A stretch of DNA of 64,000 bases. It comes from an uncultured Planctomycetales bacterium. GTDB lineage: Bacteria > Omnitrophota > Gorgyraeia > Zapsychrales > JBDRMG01. Made by a program: the position numbers and the translations under genes. Where the stretch lies: positions 20,220 to 84,219 of the forward strand of contig CAYZIY010000007.1 of the NCBI GenBank assembly GCA_964478715.1. Reading direction: 5' to 3'. Positions within the stretch are counted from its first letter, which is position 1; the number at the start of each line of letters is the position of its first letter. The notes under the pieces were generated by a model. It was not told the DNA's origin, made no database searches, and saw only the letters and a program-made list of their open reading frames with translations. Below are positions 5,629 through 54,159 of this stretch, in pieces.

Positions 5629-6321
5629 ATGCTATACATCATCTCCACCCCCATCGGCAACCTGAAAGATATCACTTATCGTGCTGTTGAAACGCTAAAC
5701 CAAGTTGATTTAATTGCCGCCGAAGATACCCGCCATACAAAAATTCTATGCAAACACTATGCGATCGAAACACCTCTAACCAGCTATTTTGAACATAACA
5801 AACTCAAAAAAGCGGAGATTCTTATTGAGTGTCTCAAACAGGGCAAGGATATTGCCCTGGTCAGTGATGCCGGTACGCCGGGGATCAGTGATCCGGGATT
5901 TCATTTGATTCGCTTAGCCGGGAAGCATCATATCGCGATGACAGCTATTCCGGGGCCGGCAGCCTTGATTGTGGCTTTGACATTATCCGGGCTGCCGGCC
6001 CATTCTTTTGTTTTTCAAGGGTTTTTGCCAGTTAAAGTTGGCGCCCGACGTAAAATGATTCAACAATTCAAACAACAGGAGGGAACCATCATTTTTTATG
6101 AATCACCTCATCGCATCGTTAAAACCCTTTTTGATTTGAACGACATTCTTAGCGATCCCCTTGTTGTCGTTGCACGCGAGCTGACCAAAAAATTCGAAGA
6201 AATCCGCACAGGTAAATCCAGTGAACTGATTAAACATTTCCAAAAATCAACTCCCAAAGGAGAATTTGTCGTTCTTTTCAACAAAAATTCTAACAAAAAT
6301 TCCTCTGTCTTTTCTCCTTGA
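5629..6321 (+). CDS. rsmI: 16S rRNA (cytidine1402-2'-O)-methyltransferase, tetrapyrrole-methylase fold
   Basis: MLYIISTPIGNLKDITYRAVETL...AAEDTR N-terminus is typical of RsmI. Confidence 0.85.
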   Translation: MLYIISTPIGNLKDITYRAVETLNQVDLIAAEDTRHTKILCKHYAIETPLTSYFEHNKLKKAEILIECLKQGKDIALVSDAGTPGISDPGFHLIRLAGKHHIAMTAIPGPAALIVALTLSGLPAHSFVFQGFLPVKVGARRKMIQQFKQQEGTIIFYESPHRIVKTLFDLNDILSDPLVVVARELTKKFEEIRTGKSSELIKHFQKSTPKGEFVVLFNKNSNKNSSVFSP

Positions 6322-34656: not shown

Positions 34657-35786
34657 CACAAGCCAATCAGCATCCCGAAGCCAAACAGTATCATGCGATC
34701 AAAAACCGTCTGTTTTTTGTTCATTTAGGCCTTAATGTCTTATTTCTTGTTCTATTTTTCTTAAGCGGTTTTAGTGAACAAATTCGCTCAATGGCTTTTG
34801 GTTTGAGCAACAATTATTATTTGGGTAATGCGATTTATTTGATGGGTTTCTTTGCCATCCTTTTACTCATCAATCTTCCTTTAGATATCTATGAGGGATT
34901 TTTTCTGGAACATCGCTACCAGCTTTCTAACCAGGCTTTTTTATCCTGGTCAATCGATGAAATGAAAAAGGCCCTTTTAAGCGGCCTGATTATGTTGATT
35001 GCCATTGAAGTTGTATATTTCTTCCTACGAGCTTTTCCCAATCAGTGGTGGCTGTTAGCGACTTTTTTCTGGCTTTTCTTTAGCTTGATTCTGGCCCGTT
35101 TGGTGCCCACTGTTATTCTTCCTCTGTTTTACAAATATAAAGATTTCGACAATGCGCAAATTAAGGGGCGCATTATCAGTCTTTTTCAGAAAGTCGGTCT
35201 GAAGCTGAAAGATATCTATCTTATCGATTTCTCATCCAAGACAAAGAAGGTTAATGCCATGGTCTGCGGCCTGGGGCGCAATCGGCGGGTTATTTTAACC
35301 GATAATCTTTTAAATCTCTTCAGCGACGGAGAGATTGAGAGCATTGTGGCTCATGAAATGGGTCATTATGTTCACAAGGATATCATCAAATTAACAGCTT
35401 TTAATACATTGTTGACCTTTGGCAGTTTTTATCTGATGAATTTGGTTTTAAAACATACATTGAAATTTACACATATCAGTTCTGTCGATGATATTGCCTT
35501 TTTGCCTGTCATGGCCCTGGTTTTTCTTCTGTTTAGTTTTCTGATGATGCCGCTAGCCAATGCTTTCAGCCGTTTTCTGGAAGAGCAGGCCGATCGGTAT
35601 TCTCTTTTCTTGACGCAGAATGCGAAAGATTTCATGGCGGCCTTTGAGAAGCTGGGAGAGATGAATTTATCTGAATTCCAGCCCTCGGCCTTGGTAGAAA
35701 TGCTGTTTTATGACCACCCCCCGCTATCTAAGCGAATCCAAATGTGCCGGAAATTTCAGAATCAAGCATTGCATCCGAATTTATGA
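34653..35786 (+). CDS. M48-family (Ste24/HtpX-like) integral-membrane zinc metalloprotease
   Basis: Multi-TM with HEMGHYVHKD (HExxH) and downstream E in LEEQADRYS. Confidence 0.8.
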   Translation: MTQANQHPEAKQYHAIKNRLFFVHLGLNVLFLVLFFLSGFSEQIRSMAFGLSNNYYLGNAIYLMGFFAILLLINLPLDIYEGFFLEHRYQLSNQAFLSWSIDEMKKALLSGLIMLIAIEVVYFFLRAFPNQWWLLATFFWLFFSLILARLVPTVILPLFYKYKDFDNAQIKGRIISLFQKVGLKLKDIYLIDFSSKTKKVNAMVCGLGRNRRVILTDNLLNLFSDGEIESIVAHEMGHYVHKDIIKLTAFNTLLTFGSFYLMNLVLKHTLKFTHISSVDDIAFLPVMALVFLLFSFLMMPLANAFSRFLEEQADRYSLFLTQNAKDFMAAFEKLGEMNLSEFQPSALVEMLFYDHPPLSKRIQMCRKFQNQALHPNL

Positions 35787-37786
35787 ATCGCTTAAAGCAA
35801 AAAGTTGAGAATGAAAAAAGACGCTATCTGCGGCTTGCGCATGTTTATCCTGTGGAATTTGCTTTTTGCAATTTGCAGGGCCAACTCATTTCTTCCTGGC
35901 AGCAGGGTTTTACCTGCAATATCAGTCAGGGCGGTATTTGTCTTAATGCGCAGGCCAGTTCTCTGGTAGTCGATCATCTAAAGGAAGAAAAAGAGCGTTA
36001 TCTTCGGCTCAAGATCAGTATTCCGCTTTTCTCTCCGCCGGTTGAGGCATTTTCTAAGGTTGCCTGGATGGCTCAGCAGACTGAATCTTATCCGAGAGGA
36101 TTTCTTATCGGTCTGCAGTTTTTGGAGATCCAGAAATCGCAAGCTAGACGGATGCTTAGATATGCGCGGATTATTAAACGCACGCCTCTGGTGATGGCCG
36201 CATTTATCTGTATTTTGTTTACTTTTCTAGCCGGGCATACCTACATGAATTATCGTCTGCGGATAAGTAATGAAGAACTGGTTCAGCAGTTTGTGTTCTT
36301 GCAAAGCGACCAGACGAAAAACCAGAACCGCCTGAAGACCATTCAAGGTGAGAAAACACTTCTGGCAGAAACCATCAATGATTATAATGCTGATATTCGC
36401 GATCTCAAGCGGGGGCTTGATCGCGCTCTTGGCGAAATTAATAGAAAGACACAGAACCAGAAAGTATTGCGCGATCAAGCCAATCAGCTGACACGAACTA
36501 TCGCCGAGCTTCAAACCAGGATTCAGCTTTTGGAGAGTGAAAAGGCCCCTTTAGCCAATCAGCTTGAGATTCTTGTGAAAAACGAAGAAATGATCCAGGA
36601 CCGATTAAGACTCATGGAAAGAAATAAGCGGGACTTAGAGAATGAAATTGTTGCCCAGATGATTCAGTGGCTTAAAAATCATCAAAATCAGTCGACTGGA
36701 CTGATTTCGAGTTTCGAGGGGCCGGTCGGTATCATCAAGCATTGGGCTTTTATTTACGATCAGGCCCTGGCCGCGAATGTCTTTCTTATTGATAATGATC
36801 TTAAGGCTTGCAAAAAGATTCTCAATTTCTTTGCCCGGAAAATGCAAAACGATTTTAATGGTTTTCATAATGCCTATTACAGCGATACTGAAGATATTGC
36901 CGAATTTACGATTCACAGCGGTCCCAATATTTGGGCTGGCATGGCTATTGCCCAGTATGCGGATCAAACAGGAGATCGCCAGTATTTGCCTTTGGCGCAA
37001 AAGATTGCCGATTGGCTTATTGCTTTACAGGAACAGGATAAAGACGGAGGTTTACGCGGAGGACCGGACGTTTTCTGGTATGCAACTGAGCATAATCTAG
37101 ATGCCTATGCTTTTCTTGACATGATGGCGAAGCTGACCGGTGAGGAAAAATATTATTTGGCCCAGAAAAAGATTTTGAGCTGGCTTGAAAAACATGCCAT
37201 GGTGGCTCATGAAAACGATCACCGCAAGCCGCCGGTAAAAAGAGGCCGCGGAGACGCCACAATCGCCACCGACACATTTGCCTGGTCCCTGGCTGCGATC
37301 GGCCCTCCCGTCTTGAGACAATTACAGATGGATCCTGAGGCGATCATGGCATTTGCCGAAAAACACTGCAAAGTCCAAACAAGATTTCGCCGACCCAGCG
37401 GAGTAGTTATTGATGTAGAAGGTTTTGATTTTTCCAAACCGGCTCATGTGGCTCGCGGTGGCATTCTTTCTCCGGAATGGACTTCTCAGATGATTGTCTC
37501 GTTTCAAATTTTGGCCGATGATTTCCAAAAGGAAAATGATTTAACCAAGACTGTTTTTTACCGTCAAAAAGCCGTCCACTATCTCAATGAACTCAATAAA
37601 CTGATTATATCGAGTCCTTCTCCGCGCGGGTTGGGTGAAGGATGTCTTCCTTATGCGACTGTCCCGCAGGCTGATACAGGTCACGGCTGGCGCACGCCCA
37701 AAGGGACAGATACCGGATCGATCGCTGGTACGGCCTATATGATTATGGCTATTTATGGCTACAATCCGTTGGAGCTGGGAGGCTAA
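35783..37786 (+). CDS. PilZ-domain / TM / coiled-coil / (alpha/alpha)6-barrel-like multidomain protein
   Basis: N-terminal RRYLRL...NISQGGICL (PilZ RxxxR and D/NxSxGG), a second PilZ-like half, a TM helix, about 150 aa of coiled coil, and a C-terminal region with six-hairpin-glycosidase-like composition. ATGA overlap with the M48 gene. Confidence 0.5.
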   Translation: MNRLKQKVENEKRRYLRLAHVYPVEFAFCNLQGQLISSWQQGFTCNISQGGICLNAQASSLVVDHLKEEKERYLRLKISIPLFSPPVEAFSKVAWMAQQTESYPRGFLIGLQFLEIQKSQARRMLRYARIIKRTPLVMAAFICILFTFLAGHTYMNYRLRISNEELVQQFVFLQSDQTKNQNRLKTIQGEKTLLAETINDYNADIRDLKRGLDRALGEINRKTQNQKVLRDQANQLTRTIAELQTRIQLLESEKAPLANQLEILVKNEEMIQDRLRLMERNKRDLENEIVAQMIQWLKNHQNQSTGLISSFEGPVGIIKHWAFIYDQALAANVFLIDNDLKACKKILNFFARKMQNDFNGFHNAYYSDTEDIAEFTIHSGPNIWAGMAIAQYADQTGDRQYLPLAQKIADWLIALQEQDKDGGLRGGPDVFWYATEHNLDAYAFLDMMAKLTGEEKYYLAQKKILSWLEKHAMVAHENDHRKPPVKRGRGDATIATDTFAWSLAAIGPPVLRQLQMDPEAIMAFAEKHCKVQTRFRRPSGVVIDVEGFDFSKPAHVARGGILSPEWTSQMIVSFQILADDFQKENDLTKTVFYRQKAVHYLNELNKLIISSPSPRGLGEGCLPYATVPQADTGHGWRTPKGTDTGSIAGTAYMIMAIYGYNPLELGG

Positions 37787-44054: not shown

Positions 44055-46916
44055 TTACATTTCTTTCGGTTGAGTTAAGAGAATTTCGTCATCCGGGGTC
44101 AGAGCCAGCGGGTGATAATCCCAGGTATTTCCGCTTAAGGCCGAGGCGGCCGTGGCATTTAACGGCAGTTCCACAGAAAGAATTTCCGAAATAAAAACAA
44201 GGTCTCCCGGAGGTCGGCTACTTGAGAGCAGATAGCTGATATCGTAAATTTTTCTCGGCTCGCCATTAAAACTCAGCAAATCCCAGGGGGCCGCTTCTGT
44301 GACACCAAACGCCGATTGTCCTGACTGATCACGTCCGCGAACCCAGTAGGCGGAATGCCCCGAAAAATTATCTATTAAATTCTGTGGTTCCGGTGACAAT
44401 GCGCTGAAAGGAATAGGATTCTCCGTATATGACTGGTCCCAGTATCTGCTGTTGGGCTCAATCGGGCCGTGAAGAGGCCGGAATTCATTACCCAGCTGGA
44501 TGAAAGATCCGGTAACAACAGGTTCATTTTGATGCCAGCAGGATAAAGGATCTCCGCCGCAAGGCGGGGTTAAGTGATCTCCGGGATCGCTGTGAAAATT
44601 CCAGAGTTCTTCGGTGACATGCGGATCCCAGGCTCTGGGCCCAATAAGAGAGATATTATAATTAATCACATTGTTGCCAGAACTGTCTTCAACGGTCCCC
44701 TCGACGAAATTGGGCATTTGCGGCTCATCGGGATTTTCATCATCCGGAAACATATCATAAAGATAATTGTAGCCATCCTGGCCGTTTTCATCAAAGGCAT
44801 AATCGGTCTCAAAACCGGATCCTTCCGGTAGAGTGATATAGACAGCTGAAGCGGGATTGATAGGAGAGACTACTGTTTCTGCGTAAGGATAGTCTGGATG
44901 ATGATGCGGCATGCGCAGATAGCGGGGATAGCGAAAGCCTTCGCTTACTAAAAAGACATCATCGCTGACAATGGCGGCCGAGGGTTTTCGGGCATTTGTA
45001 TTGTAATGACCTTCCAGAATCAGATCGCCATGGATGACGAAGGTGGCTCCGTTGGGGGCACCGTCTTTTTGAGGGAGTTCTCCGGCATTATACACGGCAG
45101 CACCGACGTAATACTGCCTTTGATCCCCTTCGGATTCGATAAATTGTACGTCAGAAATATATAGCCCGTTTTCAGGCAGCCAGTCTGAAGAATCATTGGC
45201 CGCGCAGTCTTTCAAGGCCGACATGTTTGTTCGCAAAACTGTCATGGGAAGCCCGTCGACATGCCGGATAAAACTGCGCAGTTCAAAAAGGCTCTCTTCG
45301 TCTGATCCGCATTCTATCGGGGGAGCAATGGACCGATTCTCATAAGGGTTGTCAAAATCGAAACGCAGATCCGTATCATCGGTAACGGGAATTCCGTTTA
45401 CGCTGACTTCGAGGTAATAAGTACCGTTTTTTTCTTTGGCTGCGGCCACAAAGGCCTGGTCCGAATTTTTATTGAGAATCGAGTTCAGATTCATTTCAGG
45501 CGGGCTGATGGTGCTGACATCATCCTGGAACACTCCGGCGAGTCCTTCAATTCTATAAGGGGTATCTTCTCCGGAAGGATAATTTCGATTGATGCTTTCA
45601 CTGAAGGCAAAAAATTCCGGTTGCTTTTCGGAATCTGTCAACTGCATGCCGGTCACCCGCGGATCGCCCGGCGCATGACGGCCCATATACATGAATCTGT
45701 CATTGTAAGCGGTGCCAAAACGATTGGGGAGATAATAGTCGTTGATCTTGGGCATCGCCTCGTAATAATTTTCGTTATTGGAAGTTCCGTCGGCGCAGGT
45801 ATTTGTTGAATGGCAATTGATATCCTGCTGCCAGTACACATAGGCCCGGCTTTCTGACGACCCGTCCCAGGCCCCCGCATCAAACGGTGGATTTAAAAAT
45901 GGTGTCTGCGGCCAGGGCCAGATTGGCAGATTGTTGGATTCTTGGTCCCATTCGACGAATTTGCCTGTAGCGGTATCAAAGGCCAGCAAGCCCTGTCTGT
46001 CACCGGCATAATGGCCGTCCATTTTATTGATATAGTTTTCCTGATCCCACAGCCATCTATCTAGTGTATCGTTAGGTAAAATCAGAGGTCGGCGCAGATG
46101 GGGATAGATATTTGTATAATCATGACTATCGACTGCTCCTCCGCTGACAGGATCATATACCTGGCCGTCGATAAAATCATCAGGATGGACAAAGGGCGAG
46201 AAGGCATAGGAAATCTTTCCGGTGGCCTTAAGCTCATCCACGTTTTCGATGATGGTGTAATCATTCAAAAGGATATTGCCGTTAGTGTGGATTTTTCCGC
46301 CCTGGGCGTTAAGCAGCTGCCATCCGAGAGAGAGGTCTTCGTTGTTAAACAGGGCATATTGAAACATATCGGTGATTTCTATTTTCATGGCAAAAAGGCG
46401 GGTCACCGTATTATGAATGCCCAGAGCCAGGACATAGAGAGCGTTCTCATTGTCTTTACAATATGTTTTTAGGGCAAAAAGAGGATGGCCGTTTTCATCC
46501 AGCGCTCCGTAGTCAATAGAATCAATACCCCGGCTCACCAAATAAGGGAAATCATCAGCCGATAACTGGTGGTTAAATACAATACCGGGGATGTCGGAAT
46601 CTGTCGGGCAATTATCAACACAATGTTCAAGCGCGTTATTTTCGGTATTGAGAATATGGGTGGTGAATTCACCTGTGGATATCGATGCATTATTTTTGAT
46701 TTCATGATAGGCGTATTCTACGCCTTTACGGGCATGCAATTCCGCGGCCAAACTGTCATGCAGGATATGCCCTTGATTATTGCCCGAGACAGCCCGGGCA
46801 AAATTGGCCGCGGCATAGGTGACCACCAGGATCAAGACAGGATACAAAACCAGCGAGAAGGCGATGCCTTTTTGATTCTTTTTTCTTTGATCTTTTTTTA
46901 AAATTATTTGGCTCAT
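44055..46916 (-). CDS. Giant (953 aa) secreted or pilus-associated protein with a TadE/TadG-like pseudopilin N-terminus. Paralogue of 49211-52015
   Basis: N-terminal KGIAFSLVLYPVLILVVTYAAANFARAV resembles the TadE-like anchor (RGAAAVEFALVLPVLLLLLFGIVEFG). Shared blocks with the paralogue include KIHTNGNILLNDYTIIENV...FVHPDD, ILEGHYNTN...SEGFRYPRYL..HHPDYPYAE and a C-terminal PWDLLSFN. Confidence 0.6.
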   Translation of the reverse strand: MSQIILKKDQRKKNQKGIAFSLVLYPVLILVVTYAAANFARAVSGNNQGHILHDSLAAELHARKGVEYAYHEIKNNASISTGEFTTHILNTENNALEHCVDNCPTDSDIPGIVFNHQLSADDFPYLVSRGIDSIDYGALDENGHPLFALKTYCKDNENALYVLALGIHNTVTRLFAMKIEITDMFQYALFNNEDLSLGWQLLNAQGGKIHTNGNILLNDYTIIENVDELKATGKISYAFSPFVHPDDFIDGQVYDPVSGGAVDSHDYTNIYPHLRRPLILPNDTLDRWLWDQENYINKMDGHYAGDRQGLLAFDTATGKFVEWDQESNNLPIWPWPQTPFLNPPFDAGAWDGSSESRAYVYWQQDINCHSTNTCADGTSNNENYYEAMPKINDYYLPNRFGTAYNDRFMYMGRHAPGDPRVTGMQLTDSEKQPEFFAFSESINRNYPSGEDTPYRIEGLAGVFQDDVSTISPPEMNLNSILNKNSDQAFVAAAKEKNGTYYLEVSVNGIPVTDDTDLRFDFDNPYENRSIAPPIECGSDEESLFELRSFIRHVDGLPMTVLRTNMSALKDCAANDSSDWLPENGLYISDVQFIESEGDQRQYYVGAAVYNAGELPQKDGAPNGATFVIHGDLILEGHYNTNARKPSAAIVSDDVFLVSEGFRYPRYLRMPHHHPDYPYAETVVSPINPASAVYITLPEGSGFETDYAFDENGQDGYNYLYDMFPDDENPDEPQMPNFVEGTVEDSSGNNVINYNISLIGPRAWDPHVTEELWNFHSDPGDHLTPPCGGDPLSCWHQNEPVVTGSFIQLGNEFRPLHGPIEPNSRYWDQSYTENPIPFSALSPEPQNLIDNFSGHSAYWVRGRDQSGQSAFGVTEAAPWDLLSFNGEPRKIYDISYLLSSSRPPGDLVFISEILSVELPLNATAASALSGNTWDYHPLALTPDDEILLTQPKEM

Positions 46917-46942
46917 GATTATTGCTCGTTTTGCTTACTTTA

Positions 46943-47812
46943 TCAGCGTATTTCTTTAGGCGCCGTTCGGCAGTCATCAGGGCAAGTTACTGATGTTTCA
47001 TCACCGCTGCAAATTCCGTCACCGCAGCGCGTGCAATCTTCCGGACAGCTTATGGCGGTTTCATCACCGTTACACATTTCGTCACCGCAATGTTGACAAT
47101 CTTGAGCACAATTGTCCGGGTCTTCATCAATGTCGCAGTTTCCATCGCCGCAAAAAGTTTGAGGCTCACAATCCGCGGGGCAGGTGGTTTCGCTCTCAGT
47201 GGCATCGCAGACGCCGTCACCGCAGACCACACACACGCCGCAGTCCTGAGGGCAGGAATAACAGTCTTCGGATTGGTCACATTTATCATTGCCGCAGAAC
47301 TCGCAAGTGGTCATATCTTGCTGACAGTTTTCGCAGGTTTCGTCGGGGTCTTCTATGCCGTTTCCGCAGTCCGGCAGTTCATCGCAGTCCTGGGGGCATT
47401 CTTCGAACGTTTCGCGGATATCGCATAGGCCGTTACCGCAGAGAATGGAGGTATAAATATTATCGATATCATTAAGCTGAACTTTTGTTTCGATGTTCAT
47501 GGCTCTGATAGAGGGATAAAGCTCTTGATCGGGTGTGATTTTGATGTGCACCGTCTGGTTACTCAAGTTTCGGGTTACTTCCAGAGAATCAGCCACACCC
47601 AGAGTGCGCCACGAGCGGATTTCGGGGTCAGGAACCTCATCCGCGCCGGTTTGCATCCCGCCGCCAGGTTGGCCGCCTCCGGGGAGGCTATCCGCCCAAG
47701 ATGTCGCCGATGCGAGGCTTATGCAAAACCAAACGATTAAAAAGAAAAAGACGCTAAAAAAGGAAAGATTTTTTGCTAGGATGTTTATCTTGAATGTTTT
47801 CATTGAGAGCAT
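46943..47812 (-). CDS. Secreted cysteine-rich repeat protein with about 7 tandem CGDGxC-x8-10-CPxDC modules
   Basis: Signal peptide MKTFKINILAKNLSFFSVFFFLIVWFCISLASA. Repeats include CGNGLCDIRETFEECPQDC, CGDGVCDATESETTCPADC, CGDGNCDIDEDPDNCAQDC and CGDGICSGDETSVTCPDDC. The ORF-track N-terminal extension into the upstream gene is probably spurious, so the start is uncertain (47812 or 47803). Confidence 0.55.
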   Translation of the reverse strand: MLSMKTFKINILAKNLSFFSVFFFLIVWFCISLASATSWADSLPGGGQPGGGMQTGADEVPDPEIRSWRTLGVADSLEVTRNLSNQTVHIKITPDQELYPSIRAMNIETKVQLNDIDNIYTSILCGNGLCDIRETFEECPQDCDELPDCGNGIEDPDETCENCQQDMTTCEFCGNDKCDQSEDCYSCPQDCGVCVVCGDGVCDATESETTCPADCEPQTFCGDGNCDIDEDPDNCAQDCQHCGDEMCNGDETAISCPEDCTRCGDGICSGDETSVTCPDDCRTAPKEIR

Positions 47813-47819
47813 GTTCTTT

Positions 47820-48905
47820 CTATTTTTCATTATTTTCTGGACCCTCATTATGGACAATAATCCCATCGGCGATATACGTATGCAGAGGATTGACGACAAA
47901 ATTATAGCTTGTAACTGTTTCATGAATTTCGTCGATCGAATTAATGCGAAAGTCACGGCCTTGTTCATCGGTCAGAAAGTCTCCTATCCGCAAAGTGTCC
48001 AACCGCACATAACGGCCCCGGCTTAAGACCGGATGATTAGGAGAGACTTTGATCGAATCATTGATGATCCAGTATTTATGAGTATTATTGTGCGACAGGG
48101 TGCCTGTGACACGGTCGGGTTGAAATTTTTGACTGGAAGCATCGAAGGCCAGAACGATATCCCCGACAGCGATATTTTCAATTGGCTTGGTGGATCCCCC
48201 GGCCATCGTGATTTTGGTCCCGGCCAGAAAACAGTTTCCGGCGCCGCAGGTTCCACAGTCGGCGCTGCACGAGCAGGCGGTCTCTCCGGCCTCACCACAG
48301 CAGACCCCATCCCCGCAGACAATTGCCCCGCACTCCGCGCAATTGCACACACTTTCTCCTCGGGTGGATTCACAGACCCCGTCACCGCAGCAATCGGTGC
48401 CGGTGGCTATATAATCTTCCTCGCACCAGGAGCAGTCTTCACCAAGATCCACATCTACTTTGCCGTCTCCGCAGAAATCTTCGTAACAAAGCACCCGCTC
48501 TATCAATTGCCCGTCGGTTGCGCCGCCGGAAGCCACATAATATTCATAATAACAACCGATATCATTAAGCGCGCCGAATTTAATATTGTCGTATTCATTA
48601 ATATAGCTTTCGCCGACTTTGGTGGGAATTTTAAAGCGGATCAGATGGCCCGAGCACGGGGGAGAATCCAATTCGTCACAGTTTTTGATGGTAACCATTT
48701 TGATATCCGATTGGCTAAGTATATTGGCCATACGCCCGACCGCATTACGGGCATCGGAGACCTGCTGAATAGCTTCATCCGCGATCTTGTAGCTTTCGCG
48801 TGTTTGAATCAAGGATGTGGCAAAGGCCCCGCCGATGATCACCAGAATAGTCATCACGGCCAGGATCTCAGTCAGGGTAAAGGCGTTTATTCTAAAGATT
48901 TTCAT
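47820..48905 (-). CDS. Type IV pilin/pseudopilin-like protein with extracellular Cys-rich repeats and a C-terminal Hint (bacterial intein-like) domain
   Basis: MKIFRINA-FTLTEILAVMTILVIIGG is a class III signal with Glu at +5. Repeats CGDGKVDVDLGEDCSWC, CGDGVCESTRGESVCNCAEC, CGDGVCCGEAGETACSCSADC. Hint block CFLAGTKITMAGG...IAVGDIVLAFD...VSPNHPVL...HTYIADGIIVHN ending in HN then E. Confidence 0.65.
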   Translation of the reverse strand: MKIFRINAFTLTEILAVMTILVIIGGAFATSLIQTRESYKIADEAIQQVSDARNAVGRMANILSQSDIKMVTIKNCDELDSPPCSGHLIRFKIPTKVGESYINEYDNIKFGALNDIGCYYEYYVASGGATDGQLIERVLCYEDFCGDGKVDVDLGEDCSWCEEDYIATGTDCCGDGVCESTRGESVCNCAECGAIVCGDGVCCGEAGETACSCSADCGTCGAGNCFLAGTKITMAGGSTKPIENIAVGDIVLAFDASSQKFQPDRVTGTLSHNNTHKYWIINDSIKVSPNHPVLSRGRYVRLDTLRIGDFLTDEQGRDFRINSIDEIHETVTSYNFVVNPLHTYIADGIIVHNEGPENNEK

Positions 48906-49107
48906 TGCCGGCTCCTAAACAAAAAACCCATCCGCAAAGGATGGGTTTTAAAGAGTTGACAGTATGTTGGCGGCCAGGCTGTCTCACCGATTAAATCGGC
49001 GGACCCTATAGCTTTGCGTCCTATCCTTGCGGATTCCGCTGAAAACTTAAGCGGATCTACCGTTGTTAGCGGCGGAAGTTTACCTTTATCAGCATCTAAT
49101 AGTACTC
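48906..49107 (-). promoter_or_regulatory. Conserved structured 5' leader RNA (copy 1) with a terminator-like hairpin abutting the RBS. Candidate riboswitch or attenuator
   Basis: Minus-strand reading: ...GCGGAATCCGCAAGGATAGGACGCAAAGCTATAGGGTCC...GCCAACATA...AAAACCCATCC-TTTGC-GGATGGGTTTTTTGTTT-AGGAGCCGGCA-ATG. Homologous to copy 2 (53659-53916) with compensatory stem changes. Confidence 0.45.
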
Positions 49108-49150
49108 TAGGATAAGTATAACACATAGATATGTCCCGACAAGAAGAGCA
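49108..49150 (-). promoter_or_regulatory. Sigma70-like promoter (TTGTCG, 18 nt, TGTGTTATACT extended -10) driving leader copy 1
   Basis: The -35, spacer and extended -10 arrangement is conserved with copy 2 (TTGTCC, 17 nt, TGTGTTATACT). Confidence 0.4.
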
Positions 49151-49210
49151 TACCAAAAATGGGAGTGAAAAGGAAGCGTTTTTCTAAAAACTACTTCTAA
49201 AAACTGCCTT

Positions 49211-52015
49211 TTATGTGGGGGGTTCGTATTTATTTCTCCAATGATCAGAAGTCCATGCAATTTCCACTACCCTTGATCGCAAACCCAGCATCTCTCCGGG
49301 AGGGTAGATCGGATCCGCAAGCCCTTCCCGGCGCAGATAATCCTGATCGTATTCATGGGCCGGCTGGGGATTGCTGGCCAAAAGGTCCCAGGGAGTCGAT
49401 TTATTATCTGTAGCCCGGCAAGGATGGGGATCCTTATCGGAGTTCCATCCAATCTGGGTATCTAAGTCAGAAAAGGGAATGGCAAAGTTCTTGTAAGAAT
49501 TCTGGTTGCAATCTCGGTTGTTGGCCGTCGTGGGAACCAGGCCGACAGGAGGAAACTCATTACCCAGTTGAATGACCGAGCCGATAATAACCGGCTGGAT
49601 TTCCGTCCAGCTGGAAGGGTCGGGAGCATTAAGGAGATCTCCAAGTTCTGTATAATAAGACCAGCGTTCCAAGAGATCAGGGTCAGGGGCATATTTTCCG
49701 ATCAAAGAGACATTATACACATAAGAATTCGGAGTTTCGGGGTCATTATCATGATCGACTGGGCCGATCGTATCCTGATCGGATTCCCAGGGTACTTTGT
49801 TTGCCATATTGCCATCTTGTTCTGCGAGCCAGTTGGCAACGCCTGGAATAAAATCGGCACGGAAACCATGTCCATCCTGGTTAAACTCTTCAAAATCCAT
49901 TCCACTTAATTCTGCTTCGGGATAGGACGGATGATGCTGGGGCCACGTTAATTTCCGGGGATAATCAAAATCTTCGGAAACTAAAGAGATTCTATTGGAG
50001 GCAATGATGGCTGCCGATTGCTTGGTCCAATCAGCATAGCCAGCATCAGCCTCATGGACATAATTGACATGGCCTTCCAAAATGGCATTATTGGCAATAA
50101 CGGTTAGTCCTCCTTGGGGCAATTGCCGCGCGTTGTAGAGCGCTACTCCGATCGGCTTGTCCGTGACCTGTGGAGAGTCTGCGGCAATAATGATCCCGCT
50201 CGAAGGCAGAAAATTTGGCTGTCCGCCTTCAGGAGGATTAACGACGCCAAATTGATGACAGCGATTTAAGTGTTCGATATTCATGCGAATCGTATTCTCG
50301 GGCAGTCCCGATTTGGGATTGATGAATTCTTTTTTTTCAAAGAGAGTGTCATTTATATCTTCGGAGCAATTTAGATCTGCGCAGCATCTTTCGTTTTTCA
50401 TCCATGAAGTCGTATCGTTTAATTTGATACTATTATTTCCCACATTGATAATATATTCTTTAAGCGCGCTTTCTTCAATCTCTTGCTCGATAGTCATTTG
50501 AATTTGTCCCGCACTGTGGCTGGATGAGTCACTTGAACTGTTGATTGTCTTTAAGGTATCAAGATGTATTTGGGGCACGGTGATTTCTTCAACACCGTCT
50601 GTGCTGTCCTTGAGCACATTAATTTGATCTTCCACAACGGCTGCCAGGCCTGTGATGGTGTCGTCTAAGGGATTATCCGGATCATCGCCTTGATCTATTT
50701 CAATGGGAAAATGGGACACATAATTATCCCAGTCCGACTCTTGATCAACAGAGTCGGTTAACCGGACAGGGGCTGTAAGATTACGTCCGTAATAAACTTC
50801 TTTATCATAGGGGGAGGAATCCGGCAGGATACTGGGAATAAAGTAACCGTTGATCTTGACATTGGCTTCATAATAGTTGGCATTATTATTTCCGTAAGGA
50901 TCTTGCCAGGCGCATGTATTTGTTTCATAACAACTGAGATCTTGTTCCCAATAGGAATTAACGAGGGTATTATGCCATTCAGGTTTATTATTAATCCAGC
51001 TTCCTTCATACCACATATTTTGATCACCCCAAGCAGGATCCCATATATAAGGAGAAGTGTCTTCCGGCACAGGTGCCGTGAAATTCGTATCCCAATAAAA
51101 AGGCCAGACGGGTTGCTTAATGTCCTGTGTTATTGTCTCTCCCTTCCAGGGGATAATACCATTTGTTGACATACGAAAAAGCCCCCGACGCATCCCTGGA
51201 TAATGGCCGTCCATGCTGTTGACATAATTGCCTTGGTTTAGTCCCACAGGAACCACTTCACCGCCCGAATAGGTTAAGTCATTCGGGTTAACGTGCGGCC
51301 AACGTCTGGTCTGATACTTGTTTTTATCATCCGGGTGGACAAAAGGTGTCATTTCCCATTCAAATTTTCCTGCTGTTGATATTTCACTGACATTTTCGAT
51401 TTCCACAAAATCATTGAATTTAATTTTCCCGTTGGCGTGGATTTTCGCCTGGCCGGCATTGATTTTTTTCCATCCGAAATCCGCATCATTCGAGTAAAAG
51501 GCCAGATAATCAAAAAGAGGCGTTCCTTTTATGATCCCCACAAAAAGACGGGTTTGGCCTTCTCTGTTGGTTTCTGCGAAACTGGTTGATTTCACTAGCG
51601 CATAATAGGCCCCGTCTTCCATGTAGACTTTAGCTTGGAAAATACTTCCCGTTTCTTCGTCACGAACCTGATACACATAGTCTTCGTTTTTATTAATCTG
51701 GGCGTCGGGAACATACAAATCAGCGGTGGCCGGCGGGTCATCGTGGGGGGCCAATGTGTCAGTCCCTGCTGCGATTTTGTGTGTCAGAAACGGATTACTG
51801 GTATATTGCCGGGCGGCAATTTCGGCAAAGACATATTCCACGCCGCTCATGGCGGTCATCTCGGTTTGATTGCGGGTATAAATCCGCCGGAAATGACGGG
51901 TATTATGCGTAGATTGCACAAAAACCGTTATTCCGTATCCTGCCAGCAGAATCAACAGAGGCAGGACAATCACATTCATGAGAAATTGTCCGTTTTTGTT
52001 TGAAATGCGTATCAT
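49211..52015 (-). CDS. Giant (934 aa) secreted or pilus-associated protein with a TadE/TadG-like N-terminus. Paralogue of 44055-46916
   Basis: N-terminal NGQFLMNVIVLPLLILLAGYGITVF (TadE-like). Conserved blocks as listed for the paralogue. RBS AGGGAGA upstream. Confidence 0.6.
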   Translation of the reverse strand: MIRISNKNGQFLMNVIVLPLLILLAGYGITVFVQSTHNTRHFRRIYTRNQTEMTAMSGVEYVFAEIAARQYTSNPFLTHKIAAGTDTLAPHDDPPATADLYVPDAQINKNEDYVYQVRDEETGSIFQAKVYMEDGAYYALVKSTSFAETNREGQTRLFVGIIKGTPLFDYLAFYSNDADFGWKKINAGQAKIHANGKIKFNDFVEIENVSEISTAGKFEWEMTPFVHPDDKNKYQTRRWPHVNPNDLTYSGGEVVPVGLNQGNYVNSMDGHYPGMRRGLFRMSTNGIIPWKGETITQDIKQPVWPFYWDTNFTAPVPEDTSPYIWDPAWGDQNMWYEGSWINNKPEWHNTLVNSYWEQDLSCYETNTCAWQDPYGNNNANYYEANVKINGYFIPSILPDSSPYDKEVYYGRNLTAPVRLTDSVDQESDWDNYVSHFPIEIDQGDDPDNPLDDTITGLAAVVEDQINVLKDSTDGVEEITVPQIHLDTLKTINSSSDSSSHSAGQIQMTIEQEIEESALKEYIINVGNNSIKLNDTTSWMKNERCCADLNCSEDINDTLFEKKEFINPKSGLPENTIRMNIEHLNRCHQFGVVNPPEGGQPNFLPSSGIIIAADSPQVTDKPIGVALYNARQLPQGGLTVIANNAILEGHVNYVHEADAGYADWTKQSAAIIASNRISLVSEDFDYPRKLTWPQHHPSYPEAELSGMDFEEFNQDGHGFRADFIPGVANWLAEQDGNMANKVPWESDQDTIGPVDHDNDPETPNSYVYNVSLIGKYAPDPDLLERWSYYTELGDLLNAPDPSSWTEIQPVIIGSVIQLGNEFPPVGLVPTTANNRDCNQNSYKNFAIPFSDLDTQIGWNSDKDPHPCRATDNKSTPWDLLASNPQPAHEYDQDYLRREGLADPIYPPGEMLGLRSRVVEIAWTSDHWRNKYEPPT

Positions 52016-52054
52016 GAGTTATTTTTCTCCCTCTCGAGATTGATCCTAATTACT

Positions 52055-52783
52055 TCATTCGGGTTCTCCCCAGTTATTGAATTCACAATTAAGTTCTTGT
52101 CCGCCTTCGGCTACATAGATCGACAAATCAACAAGGTCTGATATGTTGATTCCGTATTCATTACCTCCGCTACCTGAATTATTAACATTGGCGCGCTCGG
52201 GGTCTTCGGGAGGCGGGCAGATTGTATTTGGTGGCTCTGTTTCAGTACAGGCATCACTGCCTTCAGCACAACAGTTGGGCAGATCACCAAACATATAAGC
52301 GGATAATAAATCTAGGTCCGCTTTATTGACTATTCCGTCTCCGGTGAGCTCTCCGCATTCCGGGGCCGGCGGGCAGTCTTGAGCGCACCATTGCGAATTT
52401 TCGCTGGGGGGATCGCAAAAACCATCCCCGCAGACGGTAATGGTCAGAGGATCCGAGTCATTATCCGGATAAACAGTGGTGCTGAGCTTAATTTCCCCGC
52501 CTGATGGATAAGAGGAAGAGCTTATCTCCGGTTGAGCGGCGTAGAAACCGATCTGGACTGTTTTTGGGATATAGGTTGTGGAAAAAGTACCCTTTTCGAT
52601 GCGGCTGGCGATTACCTGAGAGGAGCGCACGGTTTCGACTGGTTGGGCGTAGGCAATTTGACCGCCTATAAGGAAAATCCAAAAAAAGACAGTTATCCCG
52701 ACAACCATCACAAATAGCATACTGAGAAAGGGCCTAATCTCATTTAACGTTTTTACATTAGGATAATCCATTAATCTAATCAT
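52055..52783 (-). CDS. Signal-anchored small protein with one Cys-rich repeat and a dockerin-like calcium-binding repeat pair
   Basis: TM anchor FLSMLFVMVVGITVFFWIFLIGG. CGDGFCDPPSENSQWCAQDC repeat. TGDGIVNKADLDLLSAYMFG and NNSGSGGNEYGINISDLVDLSIYV fit the dockerin D-x-D/N-x-DG-x-V/I-N-x2-D-x3-L-x2-Y pattern. Strong RBS AAAGGAG. Confidence 0.55.
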   Translation of the reverse strand: MIRLMDYPNVKTLNEIRPFLSMLFVMVVGITVFFWIFLIGGQIAYAQPVETVRSSQVIASRIEKGTFSTTYIPKTVQIGFYAAQPEISSSSYPSGGEIKLSTTVYPDNDSDPLTITVCGDGFCDPPSENSQWCAQDCPPAPECGELTGDGIVNKADLDLLSAYMFGDLPNCCAEGSDACTETEPPNTICPPPEDPERANVNNSGSGGNEYGINISDLVDLSIYVAEGGQELNCEFNNWGEPE

Positions 52784-52815
52784 CGCACGACTCCTTTTAT
52801 GGTTTTCTTTCTGTC

Positions 52816-53658
52816 CTATCTGTCCACGGGGGTCTCTCCGGTATCACAGTCGGCTGCGCAGGAAGAAACCGTTTCTCCGATACTGGCATCGCAAAAGCGG
52901 TCACCGCACCAGCCGAAATTCTCTTGTGCGGCCGCGACCTGATTTTCGCAGATACCGCAGTCGGCCGGACATTTTAAGCAATCTTCATGGATATCACAGA
53001 ATCCGTTCGGGCAGCAGACACCTCCGCAATCCTCAGGGCAGGACAGGCAGTTTTCTCCCAAATCCTCTTCAGGGTTGGGACCGCCAGTTTCCGGAATGCC
53101 GTCTTGGCAGATTCGGTCGCCGCAGGTACAGCGGTCTTCGCAATCAGGAAAACAGGTGTCGCAGTCTTCGCCGTAGTCTTCATTACAAGTACCATCGCCG
53201 CAATAGGGCTGGCTTTCATCGCAAATAACCTGTTTGTAGAGTTGATTGTCATTGACCAAGTATCTGTACCAGCAATATTGGTAACATTCATTCTCAGAAA
53301 TACAAGCGCCGAAAGCGACTCGGCCGTCATTGATTTCTAATGTATCCACAATAGGAGTTTTGAAGATTAAATAACTTCCTTGACAGACCGGCTCTCCCTC
53401 TTCGGGGCATGGATGGTGAACCGGAGCGCCCGGTTTATTGCTCTGGGGGGGCACCGACTGCTGAACATGGGCAGCGACACGCTGTAAAATATTTTCCAGA
53501 TGAATATTTTGATCGCTGCGGATTTTCGATATAATCGACGCCTGCATTCCTTTTTGCGCGGCAGCCGAAATCCCGCCGATGACAATGACCGAAGCCGCGA
53601 TGGAGACGACAAGCTCGGTTAGCGTAAATGCTTCTTTATTTTTTGTGTATCTTTTCAT
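52816..53658 (-). CDS. Type IV pilin/pseudopilin-like protein with 4 extracellular Cys-rich repeats
   Basis: MKRYTKNKEA-FTLTELVVSIAASVIVIGG prepilin-type N-terminus. Repeats CGDGTCNEDYGEDCDTCFPDC, CGDRICQDG...CLSCPEDC, CPNGFCDIHEDCLKCPADC, CGDRFCDASIGETVSSCAADC. The ORF-track start at 53712 would translate through the leader hairpin. The ATG at 53658 has RBS GGGAGAAG. Confidence 0.6.
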   Translation of the reverse strand: MKRYTKNKEAFTLTELVVSIAASVIVIGGISAAAQKGMQASIISKIRSDQNIHLENILQRVAAHVQQSVPPQSNKPGAPVHHPCPEEGEPVCQGSYLIFKTPIVDTLEINDGRVAFGACISENECYQYCWYRYLVNDNQLYKQVICDESQPYCGDGTCNEDYGEDCDTCFPDCEDRCTCGDRICQDGIPETGGPNPEEDLGENCLSCPEDCGGVCCPNGFCDIHEDCLKCPADCGICENQVAAAQENFGWCGDRFCDASIGETVSSCAADCDTGETPVDR

Positions 53659-53916
53659 GTCTTCTCCCAATTTCTGTTGTAACCGAAAAAAATCCCACTC
53701 CTTAAACTTCAAGGAATGGGTTTATCCGTTTTGTTGGCAGCTGGCTGCCCCTCTGCTTTCTTGCCTGCCTTTCAGAAAACAAGCGAAAACAAGAAGCGGG
53801 GTCCTTTAGCTTTGTGCCCCATCCTTGCGGTCCCGCGTGGGTTTCTCGCGGGATCTCCGGTCTCAAAGGATTGCAGGCCGGAGAATAGTTTACCTTTTTC
53901 AACACCAATGAATTGT
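53659..53916 (-). promoter_or_regulatory. Conserved structured 5' leader RNA (copy 2) with a terminator-like hairpin abutting the RBS
   Basis: Minus-strand reading: ...CCCGCGAGAAACCCACGCGGGACCGCAAGGATGGGGCACAAAGCTAAAGGACCCC...GCCAACAAA...AAACCCATTCCTT-GAAGTTT-AAGGAGTGGGATTTTTTT-CGG...GGGAGAAGAC-ATG. Confidence 0.45.
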
Positions 53917-53960
53917 TAATAAAAGTATAACACATTTTTTCTTGCGGACAATTCAGCATC
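53917..53960 (-). promoter_or_regulatory. Sigma70-like promoter (TTGTCC, 17 nt, TGTGTTATACT) driving leader copy 2
   Basis: Same architecture as the 49108-49150 promoter. Confidence 0.4.
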
Positions 53961-54159
53961 AAAAAAAAAGCCCAAAGCGAAAAAACGCTTTCTTTTTCAG
54001 TTAAGACGCCTGACTTTAATTTTATTATATTATAAGGGAAGCCCGAAGAGACTGTCTAGATAAATATGGCAAAAAAGAGCCGGACAATCCATTTGCAAAT
54101 GTCAAAATCGCGTGATAAAATGGCTGCGAAAAATACAATGAGATAAAAAAATAAAAATT

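Follow-up and report, generated by a model that had tools for sequence, protein, structure and literature searches.

The window analysed here, a 64,000-nucleotide (nt) stretch of contig CAYZIY010000007.1 from an uncultured Planctomycetales bacterium, carries two related leader RNAs on its minus strand, at ~49142–48906 (copy 1) and ~53951–53659 (copy 2), which have a promoter, a conserved core, a terminator and a ribosome-binding site (RBS) in common and which each precede a pilin-like gene. Each of them is very probably a riboswitch of cyclic di-GMP (c-di-GMP) class I, also known as GEMM-I, working via its terminator. The riboswitch class is a known one; the structural variant is apparently undescribed. 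It lies in the first hairpin of the aptamer, where the 6-base-pair (bp) stem is interrupted on its 5′ strand by two inserted hairpins, “A” and “B,” giving a four-way junction. Full-text literature searches, with incomplete coverage of subscription journals, found no account of a GEMM-I that is branched or has a four-way junction. The leaders' place in the family, the build of the junction and how it is conserved, the terminators, and their complementarity to the aptamer were all computed directly.

Family membership and the ligand pocket

Both leader RNAs read from high toward low coordinates, and both have the layout of a 5′ regulatory element, each with its own predicted sigma-70-type promoter ~20 nt 5′ of the aptamer and with the terminator, RBS and gene on its 3′ side. 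The copy 1 promoter (49115–49142, minus strand) is formed by the −35 hexamer TTGTCG (49142–49137), a 16-nt spacer and the extended −10 element TGTGTTATACT (49125–49115), and that of copy 2 (53924–53951, minus strand) by TTGTCC (53951–53946), a spacer of the same length and TGTGTTATACT at 53934–53924. The original prediction, made by a model from the sequence letters, had correctly picked out the identical extended −10, a block with TATACT within it that is present also in the homologous locus L010, together with the TTGTC(G/C) hexamer; the distance of 17–18 nt that it gave is corrected to 16 nt between hexamers. Transcription of copy 1 is predicted to start at ~49108, ~13 nt 5′ of the aptamer, and in both copies the conserved core begins ~20 nt 3′ of the promoter. 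Pairwise alignment confirms every shared block that had been listed, namely AAAGGTAAACT, CCGCAAGGAT(A/G)GG(A/G)C(G/A)CAAAGCTA(T/A)AGG, and GCCAACA(T/A)A. Combined into one pattern, these three blocks match the 64-kb window at these two sites only, and match none of 100 shuffles.

An Rfam scan of the whole window at curated thresholds returned four tRNAs and a single c-di-GMP-I match (RF01051), and nothing else. The match is copy 1 (48966–49094, minus strand), which scores 35.3 bits (gathering score, 35) and covers the full model (1–87); by Rfam's own criterion, copy 1 is a member of the known family. Copy 2 is absent from the RF01051 scan of the window at the gathering threshold, a shortfall caused by its insertions of 58 nt and ~50 nt. 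The original prediction had proposed a riboswitch or attenuator reminiscent of c-di-GMP-I and suggested scanning with the Rfam c-di-GMP models. The resemblance is substantiated by the copy 1 match and, in both copies, by alignment to the models of the Rfam clan and by the positions that contact the ligand, while the other class, c-di-GMP-II, gave no match in either leader even at E-values up to 10. A covariance model of our own (R1) scores copy 1 at 48.7 bits and copy 2 at 53.1 bits. Searched with R1, which cannot tell true variants from tandem canonical aptamers, the window yields only the two known copies, and the 48 homologous loci described below yield no further ones. A leader-peptide attenuator was set aside, the leader-type matches being at chance level and no dedicated search for short leader peptides having been made: rnk_pseudo, at 23.5 bits (threshold 55), fits the terminator hairpin alone, and Thr_leader, at 15.4 bits, lies on the opposite strand.

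The copy 1 aptamer (48964–49095, minus strand) is closed by the helix AUGcUG (49095–49090)/CAaCAU (48969–48964). A 2-bp stem, GU/GC, flanks its first hairpin, the second hairpin spans 49013–48972, and the GCC at 48971–48969 includes the equivalent of C92. The copy 2 aptamer (53732–53904, minus strand) is closed by UGUUG/CAACA and has the core AAAG-GU-AAA and AC-AAAGC, a second hairpin (53811–53739) extended by ~50 nt, and its GCC and closing-helix 3′ strand at 53738–53732. The single-stranded parts of the family and the short stem among them are in place in both copies, as AAAG, the 2-bp stem of GU with GC or AC, AAAC, the GAC/GGC bulge and GCC, and the AAA linker between the hairpins is kept, as GC-AAA-GC in copy 1 and AC-AAA-GC in copy 2. 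Aligned to the Rfam models, both copies have G, A and C at the equivalents of G20, A47 and C92; the first is the end of AAAG before GU, and the second, which we take from crystal structures to be a ligand-contact position, is the first A of the AAA linker. In the family, G20 and C92 each pair with one of the two ligand guanines (PMC6140456). Both aptamers would, on the evidence of this pocket, bind c-di-GMP.

The likeness to RF01051 (e.g., Vibrio cholerae Vc2 and Clostridioides difficile Cdi-1) thus runs through the closing helix, AAAG-GY-AAAC, the 6-bp GNRA-capped first hairpin, the GRC and AAA internal loops, the AAA linker, the second hairpin, GCC and the pocket, and extends to the 5′ untranslated position, the intrinsic terminator and the pilus or surface genes downstream. 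The differences are that the 6-bp stem is here cut by two hairpins on its 5′ strand and that scores are lowered to 35–57 bits in this variant.

The branched first hairpin and its homologues

The canonical first hairpin of the family consists of 2 bp, a 3-nt internal loop, 6 bp and a GNRA tetraloop, and is followed by the AAA linker (PMC1950547). In the Rfam alignments, 52 nt of copy 1 and 58 nt of copy 2 stand in place of the model's first-hairpin loop. Both copies have the internal loops AAA and GAC/GGC, 6 bp in total and a GCAA loop, with the 6-bp stem discontinuous (2 + 4 in copy 1, 4 + 2 in copy 2). In the copy 1 junction (49023–49078, minus strand), obtained by constrained folding with comparative support, the proximal half-stem CU (49078–49077)/AG (49022–49021) is followed by hairpin A (49076–49056), hairpin B (49055–49035) and the distal half-stem AUCC-GCAA-GGAU (49034–49023). 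In copy 2 (53823–53888, minus strand), the fold has the proximal half-stem CUAU/AUGG (3′ strand at 53822–53819), hairpin A (53884–53854), hairpin B (53853–53831) and the distal half-stem CC-GCAA-GG, and the domain is more stable than its shuffles (z = −2.26). Neither copy has an unpaired nucleotide at the junction.

The original prediction had stated that the canonical P2/P3 architecture was not evident. This holds insofar as the first hairpin is interrupted, and the architecture seemed absent because the stem is split by the two inserted hairpins; without the insertions and the copy 2 extension, what is left is the canonical arrangement of 2-bp stem, internal loop, 6-bp stem and GNRA loop. 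Two stems had also been said to differ by compensatory changes between the copies. The first, GCGGA/TCCGC against CCCGCG/CGCGGG, is real and is the inserted hairpin B (UCCGCU/AGCGGA in copy 1, UCCCGCG/CGCGGGA in copy 2). The second, GGAC/GTCC against GGGG/CCCC, had to be given up as an aptamer helix in copy 1, where the pairing joins 49021–49018 (the first-hairpin 3′ strand and bulge) to 49004–49001 (the second-hairpin 5′ strand) and where comparison by hand with ~15 homologues reveals A·C and G·U mismatches. The second-hairpin stems do show compensatory differences between copies 1 and 2.

As a geometry, we propose that the two half-stems would stack coaxially and so restore the canonical 6-bp helix, with the GCAA loop thereby placed as in ordinary members and hairpins A and B stacked on each other sideways. 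That coaxial stacking rebuilds the tetraloop-bearing helix is a testable prediction.

The pattern AAAGGYAAAC-N(35-65)-CCGNRAGG-N(3-8)-RCRCAAAGC, searched in two public collections, had 13 matching loci among species-representative genomes and 35 among metagenomes. The genomes are metagenome-assembled genomes (MAGs) labelled Omnitrophota, Elusimicrobiota, Planctomycetales or just “bacterium.” Nine false positives were dropped: four (L008, L028, L036, L041) in which the pattern bridges tandem or partial canonical aptamers, and five (L025, L032, L034, L038, L040) in which a canonical aptamer is preceded by a hairpin with a second AAAGGYAAAC. After duplicates were collapsed, 37 unique sequences remained, comprising the two window copies and 35 others; further homologues with covariation, for which the original prediction had suggested looking, do exist, and both inserted hairpins covary in them. 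One architecture is common to all 37, and for most of them it is the minimum-energy structure even when folding is unconstrained: first a proximal half-stem of 2–4 bp (opened by the C of AAAC), then the two inserted hairpins, A before B, and last a distal half-stem of 2–4 bp with its GNRA loop. The half-stems sum to 6 bp in every one of the 37 (as 2 + 4, 3 + 3 or 4 + 2), where the search pattern permitted 4–9, and in 33 of them the junction contains no unpaired nucleotide. The variant keeps the canonical helix length, split at a sliding position on the 5′ strand after bp 2, 3 or 4. A near-invariant helix thus tolerates insertion of two hairpins at three positions, provided that its halves sum to 6 bp and the junction is perfect.

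Comparison with shuffled sequences supports the same structure. Without any alignment, 76% of the real sequences have a perfect junction with at least 4 uninterrupted basal bp in hairpins A and B; when the inserted region is shuffled, 3% do. For the 33 perfect-junction sequences, we derived a structural alignment (A3) by folding each one under constraints and padding with N, and MAFFT did not alter it; a plain MAFFT alignment of the raw homologues was rejected, with the inserted hairpins misaligned in it. In A3, 97.3% of the cells in the helices are standard pairs, against 66.5% in column shuffles and 37–48% with the partner slid, and the covariation score is 0.74 against 0.18, a value reached in none of 500 shuffles. 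All ten of the tested pairs in hairpins A and B vary on both sides, with 4–6 pair types each, and RNAalifold run on A3 predicts identical helices. The RF01051 threshold is passed by 17 of 20 variant loci (36–57 bits), which Rfam's own criterion thus counts as family members, and missed by three, and since copy 2 is likewise below it, the c-di-GMP regulons of Omnitrophota, Elusimicrobiota and similar lineages are likely to be under-called.

The tetraloop provides a further line of comparison. In the family, GAAA loops are accompanied by a receptor in the second hairpin, while members with GYRA lack the receptor and often have a bulged A near the base (PMC1950547). In the variant set, 5 of the 11 with GAAA and 0 of the 20 with GYRA have the receptor half-motif CCUAA(A/G) in their second hairpin (Fisher p = 0.003, for sequences that are not independent), and two further GAAA variants have near-variants of it. 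The window copies have a GCAA loop, no receptor motif, and a 2-nt bulge near the base of the second hairpin (AGCU-AU-AGG in copy 1, AGCU-AA-AGG in copy 2), which resembles the bulged A of receptor-less members. That the GAAA/receptor rule is obeyed supports a model in which the half-stems would stack coaxially and the distal loop would act as the canonical loop. Three loci with a GAAA loop, L004 (~378–640), L007 (~5838–6090) and L012 (~5900–6212, minus strand), have a receptor-like motif and a second hairpin of 83–150 nt, and precede family-1 glycosidase genes (FPKDFLWGA..YQVEG).

Hairpin A itself ranges in length from 5 to >13 bp, and the loops of A and B are conserved in neither sequence nor length; on that account, a structural or kinetic role, or neutral elaboration, is favoured over a specific binding site. 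Hairpin A was considered as the functional tetraloop stem, with the GAAA loop of L001-type sequences in mind, and rejected, only the sum of the proximal and distal half-stems being constant at 6 bp. A conserved role for the loops was likewise rejected: by eye, GUUUU of copy 1 is complementary to AAAAC of the terminator/linker, and the copy 2 loop AAACCCA equals a terminator-arm sequence, but such complementarity is inconsistent between the copies and absent in L002 and L010, and we judge it to be chance. Some hairpin A loops resemble the 3′ GCCAACA of the aptamer (CUAACAA or CCAACAG, in copy 1 at 49068–49062 and in L010), and others, CACAAAGCG in L007, L012 and L021, resemble the RCRCAAAGC core, a feature that is inconsistent across the set. 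These resemblances hint at a possible origin of the insertion in a partial duplication, or at a decoy role for the loops.

Whether the inserted hairpins define a distinct functional subclass of c-di-GMP-I, found mostly in Omnitrophota- and Elusimicrobiota-labelled MAGs and in metagenomes, is a separate proposition and a doubtful one. If it were true, the junction would alter folding kinetics, ligand affinity or cooperativity, or would recruit a partner, and the genes under its control would be those of an uncharacterised pseudopilin cassette, with a self-cleaving Hint domain on the pilin. An analogy is the natural hairpin ribozyme, in which a four-way junction aids docking of the loops.

Variant and ordinary aptamers also occur together. 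In L015 (1114–1434, minus strand) a variant and an ordinary c-di-GMP-I aptamer, the latter at 83 bits, stand in tandem within ~320 nt, and L021 has both kinds on one contig (5146–5268 and 6015–6116). Another arrangement is seen in five of the excluded loci, at L025 236–325 (minus strand), L032 1533–1625, L034 788–877, L038 8526–8614 and L040 1361–1451 (minus strand), where a hairpin with a second AAAGGYAAAC and a GNRA-capped stem lies 5′ of a canonical aptamer, in L038 ACGGGGUAAAC-CCGCC-GAAA-GGCGG. The 3′ strand of these preceding hairpins overlaps the real junction, and they could be decoys or half-aptamer remnants of a tandem pair. Mechanically called open reading frames (ORFs) with TTG starts also span the window leaders, at 48902–49156 and 53702–53962 (both minus strand; 84 and 86 amino acids (aa)), and could be annotated by gene callers; they are almost certainly not genes, as they run across covarying RNA helices.

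Terminators and the direction of switching

A hairpin with a U-run lies ahead of the Shine-Dalgarno (SD) sequence in both leaders, as the original prediction had it. The intrinsic terminator of copy 1 (48949–48917, minus strand) is AAAACCCAUCC-UUUGC-GGAUGGGUUUU followed by UUGUUU (−15.7 kcal/mol, z = −5.67), and that of copy 2 (53720–53686, minus strand) has the 12-bp stem CCCAUUCCUUGA/UUAAGGAGUGGG followed by AUUUUUUU (−16.9 kcal/mol, z = −4.97). In copy 1 the SD sequence AGGAG (48916–48912) and the ATG (48905–48903) of the pilin-like gene come next (48903–48916, minus strand), and in copy 2 GGGAG is followed by the ATG at 53661–53659. The terminators begin 14 nt (copy 1) and 11 nt (copy 2) past the closing helix and do not overlap the aptamer; as they lie wholly 3′ of that helix, a folded aptamer does not hinder them.

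Folds of the nascent transcript, up to the terminator loop, show what the 5′ arm of the terminator can pair with before its own 3′ arm emerges. In copy 2 and in L002, L010, L029 and L045, its partner is the first-hairpin 3′ strand, CAAGGAUGGG and relatives (CAAGGA in copy 2). In copy 1, the partners of the 5′ arm and the linker are the 5′ strand of the closing helix and the AAAGG junction (GAUG...UAAAGGU). Three further loci (L004, L007, L012) have, 3′ of the aptamer, a perfect or near-perfect 12-nt complement of GCCGAUAAAGGU, that is, an anti-aptamer, from which it follows that junction sequestration is used elsewhere in the set. In the absence of ligand, a loose aptamer strand would catch the emerging 5′ arm and the polymerase would read through; in copy 2 and its nearest relatives this strand would be the first-hairpin 3′ strand with the tetraloop, and in copy 1 the closing-helix 5′ strand with AAAGG. 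With c-di-GMP bound, the capturing strands would be locked in the aptamer, the terminator would form, and the operon would be off. Given a terminator that is separate from the aptamer and has a 5′ arm complementary to strands of it, we lean toward an OFF switch, in which c-di-GMP promotes termination.

Such an arrangement has a counterpart in the class I OFF switches of C. difficile (e.g., the flgB leader), which likewise combine a class I aptamer with a terminator. Their first hairpins are of the ordinary type and not known to be branched, and they act on flagella, adhesin and protease genes, as against a pilin-like cassette in the window. The OFF direction is documented in C. difficile, where c-di-GMP lowers the downstream transcript (PMC6200980); for the window leaders, by comparison, the direction is one that we infer. 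In L016, L017 and L022 the terminator 5′ arms (e.g., CGCCGAGCUACCGAAC) repeat the aptamer 3′ strand (GCCGAGCUGCCGA), and the terminator 3′ arm can therefore pair with either copy, which is, as far as sequence predicts, a second expression-platform design inside the variant class.

Several observations weigh against reading the two leaders as branched c-di-GMP-I riboswitches that switch off through their terminators. Copy 1 is borderline at the Rfam threshold and copy 2 is below it. The junction domain of copy 1, taken alone, is no more stable than its shuffles (z = −0.57), so that the case for it rests on the comparative evidence, and it has a C·A mismatch in hairpin A and a proximal half-stem of only 2 bp. 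The comparative evidence has its own biases, since A3 is fold-derived and its pair counts lean toward structure, the homologues are related, which inflates the shuffle controls, and AAAGGYAAAC, CCGNRAGG and RCRCAAAGC are conserved by construction, being fixed in the search pattern. As to switching, the antiterminator duplex of copy 1 is weak (−11.1 kcal/mol, equalled by 40 of 500 shuffles), the antiterminator is not uniform, with copies 1 and 2 using different aptamer strands, and the minimum-energy folds of the full-length leaders always include the terminator, from which it follows that the switch must be kinetic.

The same aptamer and ligand could obey another logic, as an ON switch or through translational or dual control, with the hairpin as a constitutive or RNA-stability element; this we consider unlikely. 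ON logic has been proposed for many terminator-bearing GEMM members (Weinberg 2007, PMC1950547), c-di-GMP commonly raises adhesive pili, as with C. difficile pilA1, though via a class II riboswitch (PMC6200980), and the feeble pairing in copy 1, unlike that of copy 2, speaks for it as well. An ON design, however, needs a terminator 5′ arm that overlaps the 3′ side of the second hairpin, and here the gaps of 14 and 11 nt leave no overlap; the SD sequence is unpaired in every predicted fold, and the complementarity between aptamer strand and 5′ arm, which recurs in five relatives, also goes against these alternatives.

A GEMM-I-derived aptamer with a changed ligand, be it another cyclic dinucleotide or a second ligand or partner at the inserted hairpins, is much less probable. 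The idea draws on hairpins A and B having no assigned function, and on the result that, in E-value mode, the top-ranked model for both leaders is RF03167 (c-di-GMP-I-GGC), which belongs to the same clan as RF01051, has the same overall fold, and aligns end to end in permissive mode (copy 1, 34.5 bits, E = 1.5e-06; copy 2, 31.2 bits, E = 1.5e-05). The “GGC” in the name presumably refers to the three ligand-contact positions. Both scores are, however, far under the RF03167 gathering score of 59, and we rejected the GGC variant: its consensus is GCGAAgCc, and the window has GCAAAGC (copy 1) and ACAAAGC (copy 2), with A where the consensus has G after the 2-bp stem, which is the ordinary type. The 3′3′-cyclic GMP-AMP (3′3′-cGAMP) riboswitches of Geobacter (GEMM-Ib) also have the same fold and often stand 5′ of pilus and cytochrome genes. 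They show that variants of the fold with another ligand exist, and are defined by A at the equivalent of G20 (PMC6140456). Both window copies have G at that position (AAAG/GU) and keep the equivalent of C92, and this class too was rejected, while the loops of hairpins A and B, unconserved in sequence and length, argue against a specific extra site.

Finally, it is scarcely credible that the leaders sense no ligand and resemble each other only through duplication of an operon with its promoter and leader, the core being in decay or coincidental: the cassettes are paralogous, so that common upstream sequence is expected, and the Rfam scores are borderline, but the proteins are only ~29–32% identical where the RNA core blocks are identical and the stems compensatorily different, and the architecture, with its covariation and invariant 6-bp sum, recurs in at least 35 other unique sequences, in MAGs of several phylum labels and before unrelated genes.

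Regulated genes and genomic context

The two leaders, read as c-di-GMP-I riboswitches, head two tandem paralogous three-gene cassettes (44055–53661, minus strand), each with its own promoter and riboswitch. Cassette 1 (44055–48905, minus strand) begins with the pilin-like gene 47820–48905, whose 361-aa product starts like a prepilin, contains Cys-rich CGDGxC repeats and ends in a PT-HINT domain (Pfam E = 9e-13). The second gene, also Cys-rich, lies within ORF 46943–47968 (minus strand), the start of which is uncertain because the ORF overlaps the upstream gene by ~150 nt; the true start probably lies further downstream. The third gene, 44055–46916 (minus strand), encodes 953 aa with no family match. 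Cassette 2, which with its RBS spans 49211–53668 (minus strand), has the corresponding genes 52816–53661 (281 aa, prepilin-like and Cys-rich), 52055–52783 (242 aa, Cys-rich) and 49211–52015 (934 aa), all on the minus strand. The prepilin-type motif AFTLTE starts both first-gene products. Between the cassettes, the prepilin-like proteins are 31% identical and the ~940-aa proteins 29% (E = 1e-75), and the Cys-rich second-gene proteins, with CGDGxCD-type repeats, match weakly; Pfam and NCBIfam have no family for either the ~940-aa or the second-gene proteins.

A Hint domain, intein-like and of the self-cleaving type, is unusual on a pilin-like protein. The Hint part of the 47820–48905 product is 43% identical to its homologue at L002, and the same cassette is found 3′ of the variant riboswitch in L002, L010 and L029. 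Elsewhere, the genes behind the variant encode response regulators, family-1 glycosidases, and further secreted or membrane proteins. Such breadth of downstream genes is usual for GEMM, with pili genes a common association (PMC1950547). In the window, c-di-GMP is thereby linked to two tandem, diverged pilin-like cassettes, which points to second-messenger control of a surface appendage in uncultured organisms.

That the organism uses c-di-GMP is indicated by a PilZ-domain protein encoded in the window on the plus strand (35744–37786; 680 aa, N-terminal PilZ domain, E = 1.9e-07). The PilZ gene is followed by a gene for a 939-aa protein that combines Peptidase_M1 and Omp85 domains.

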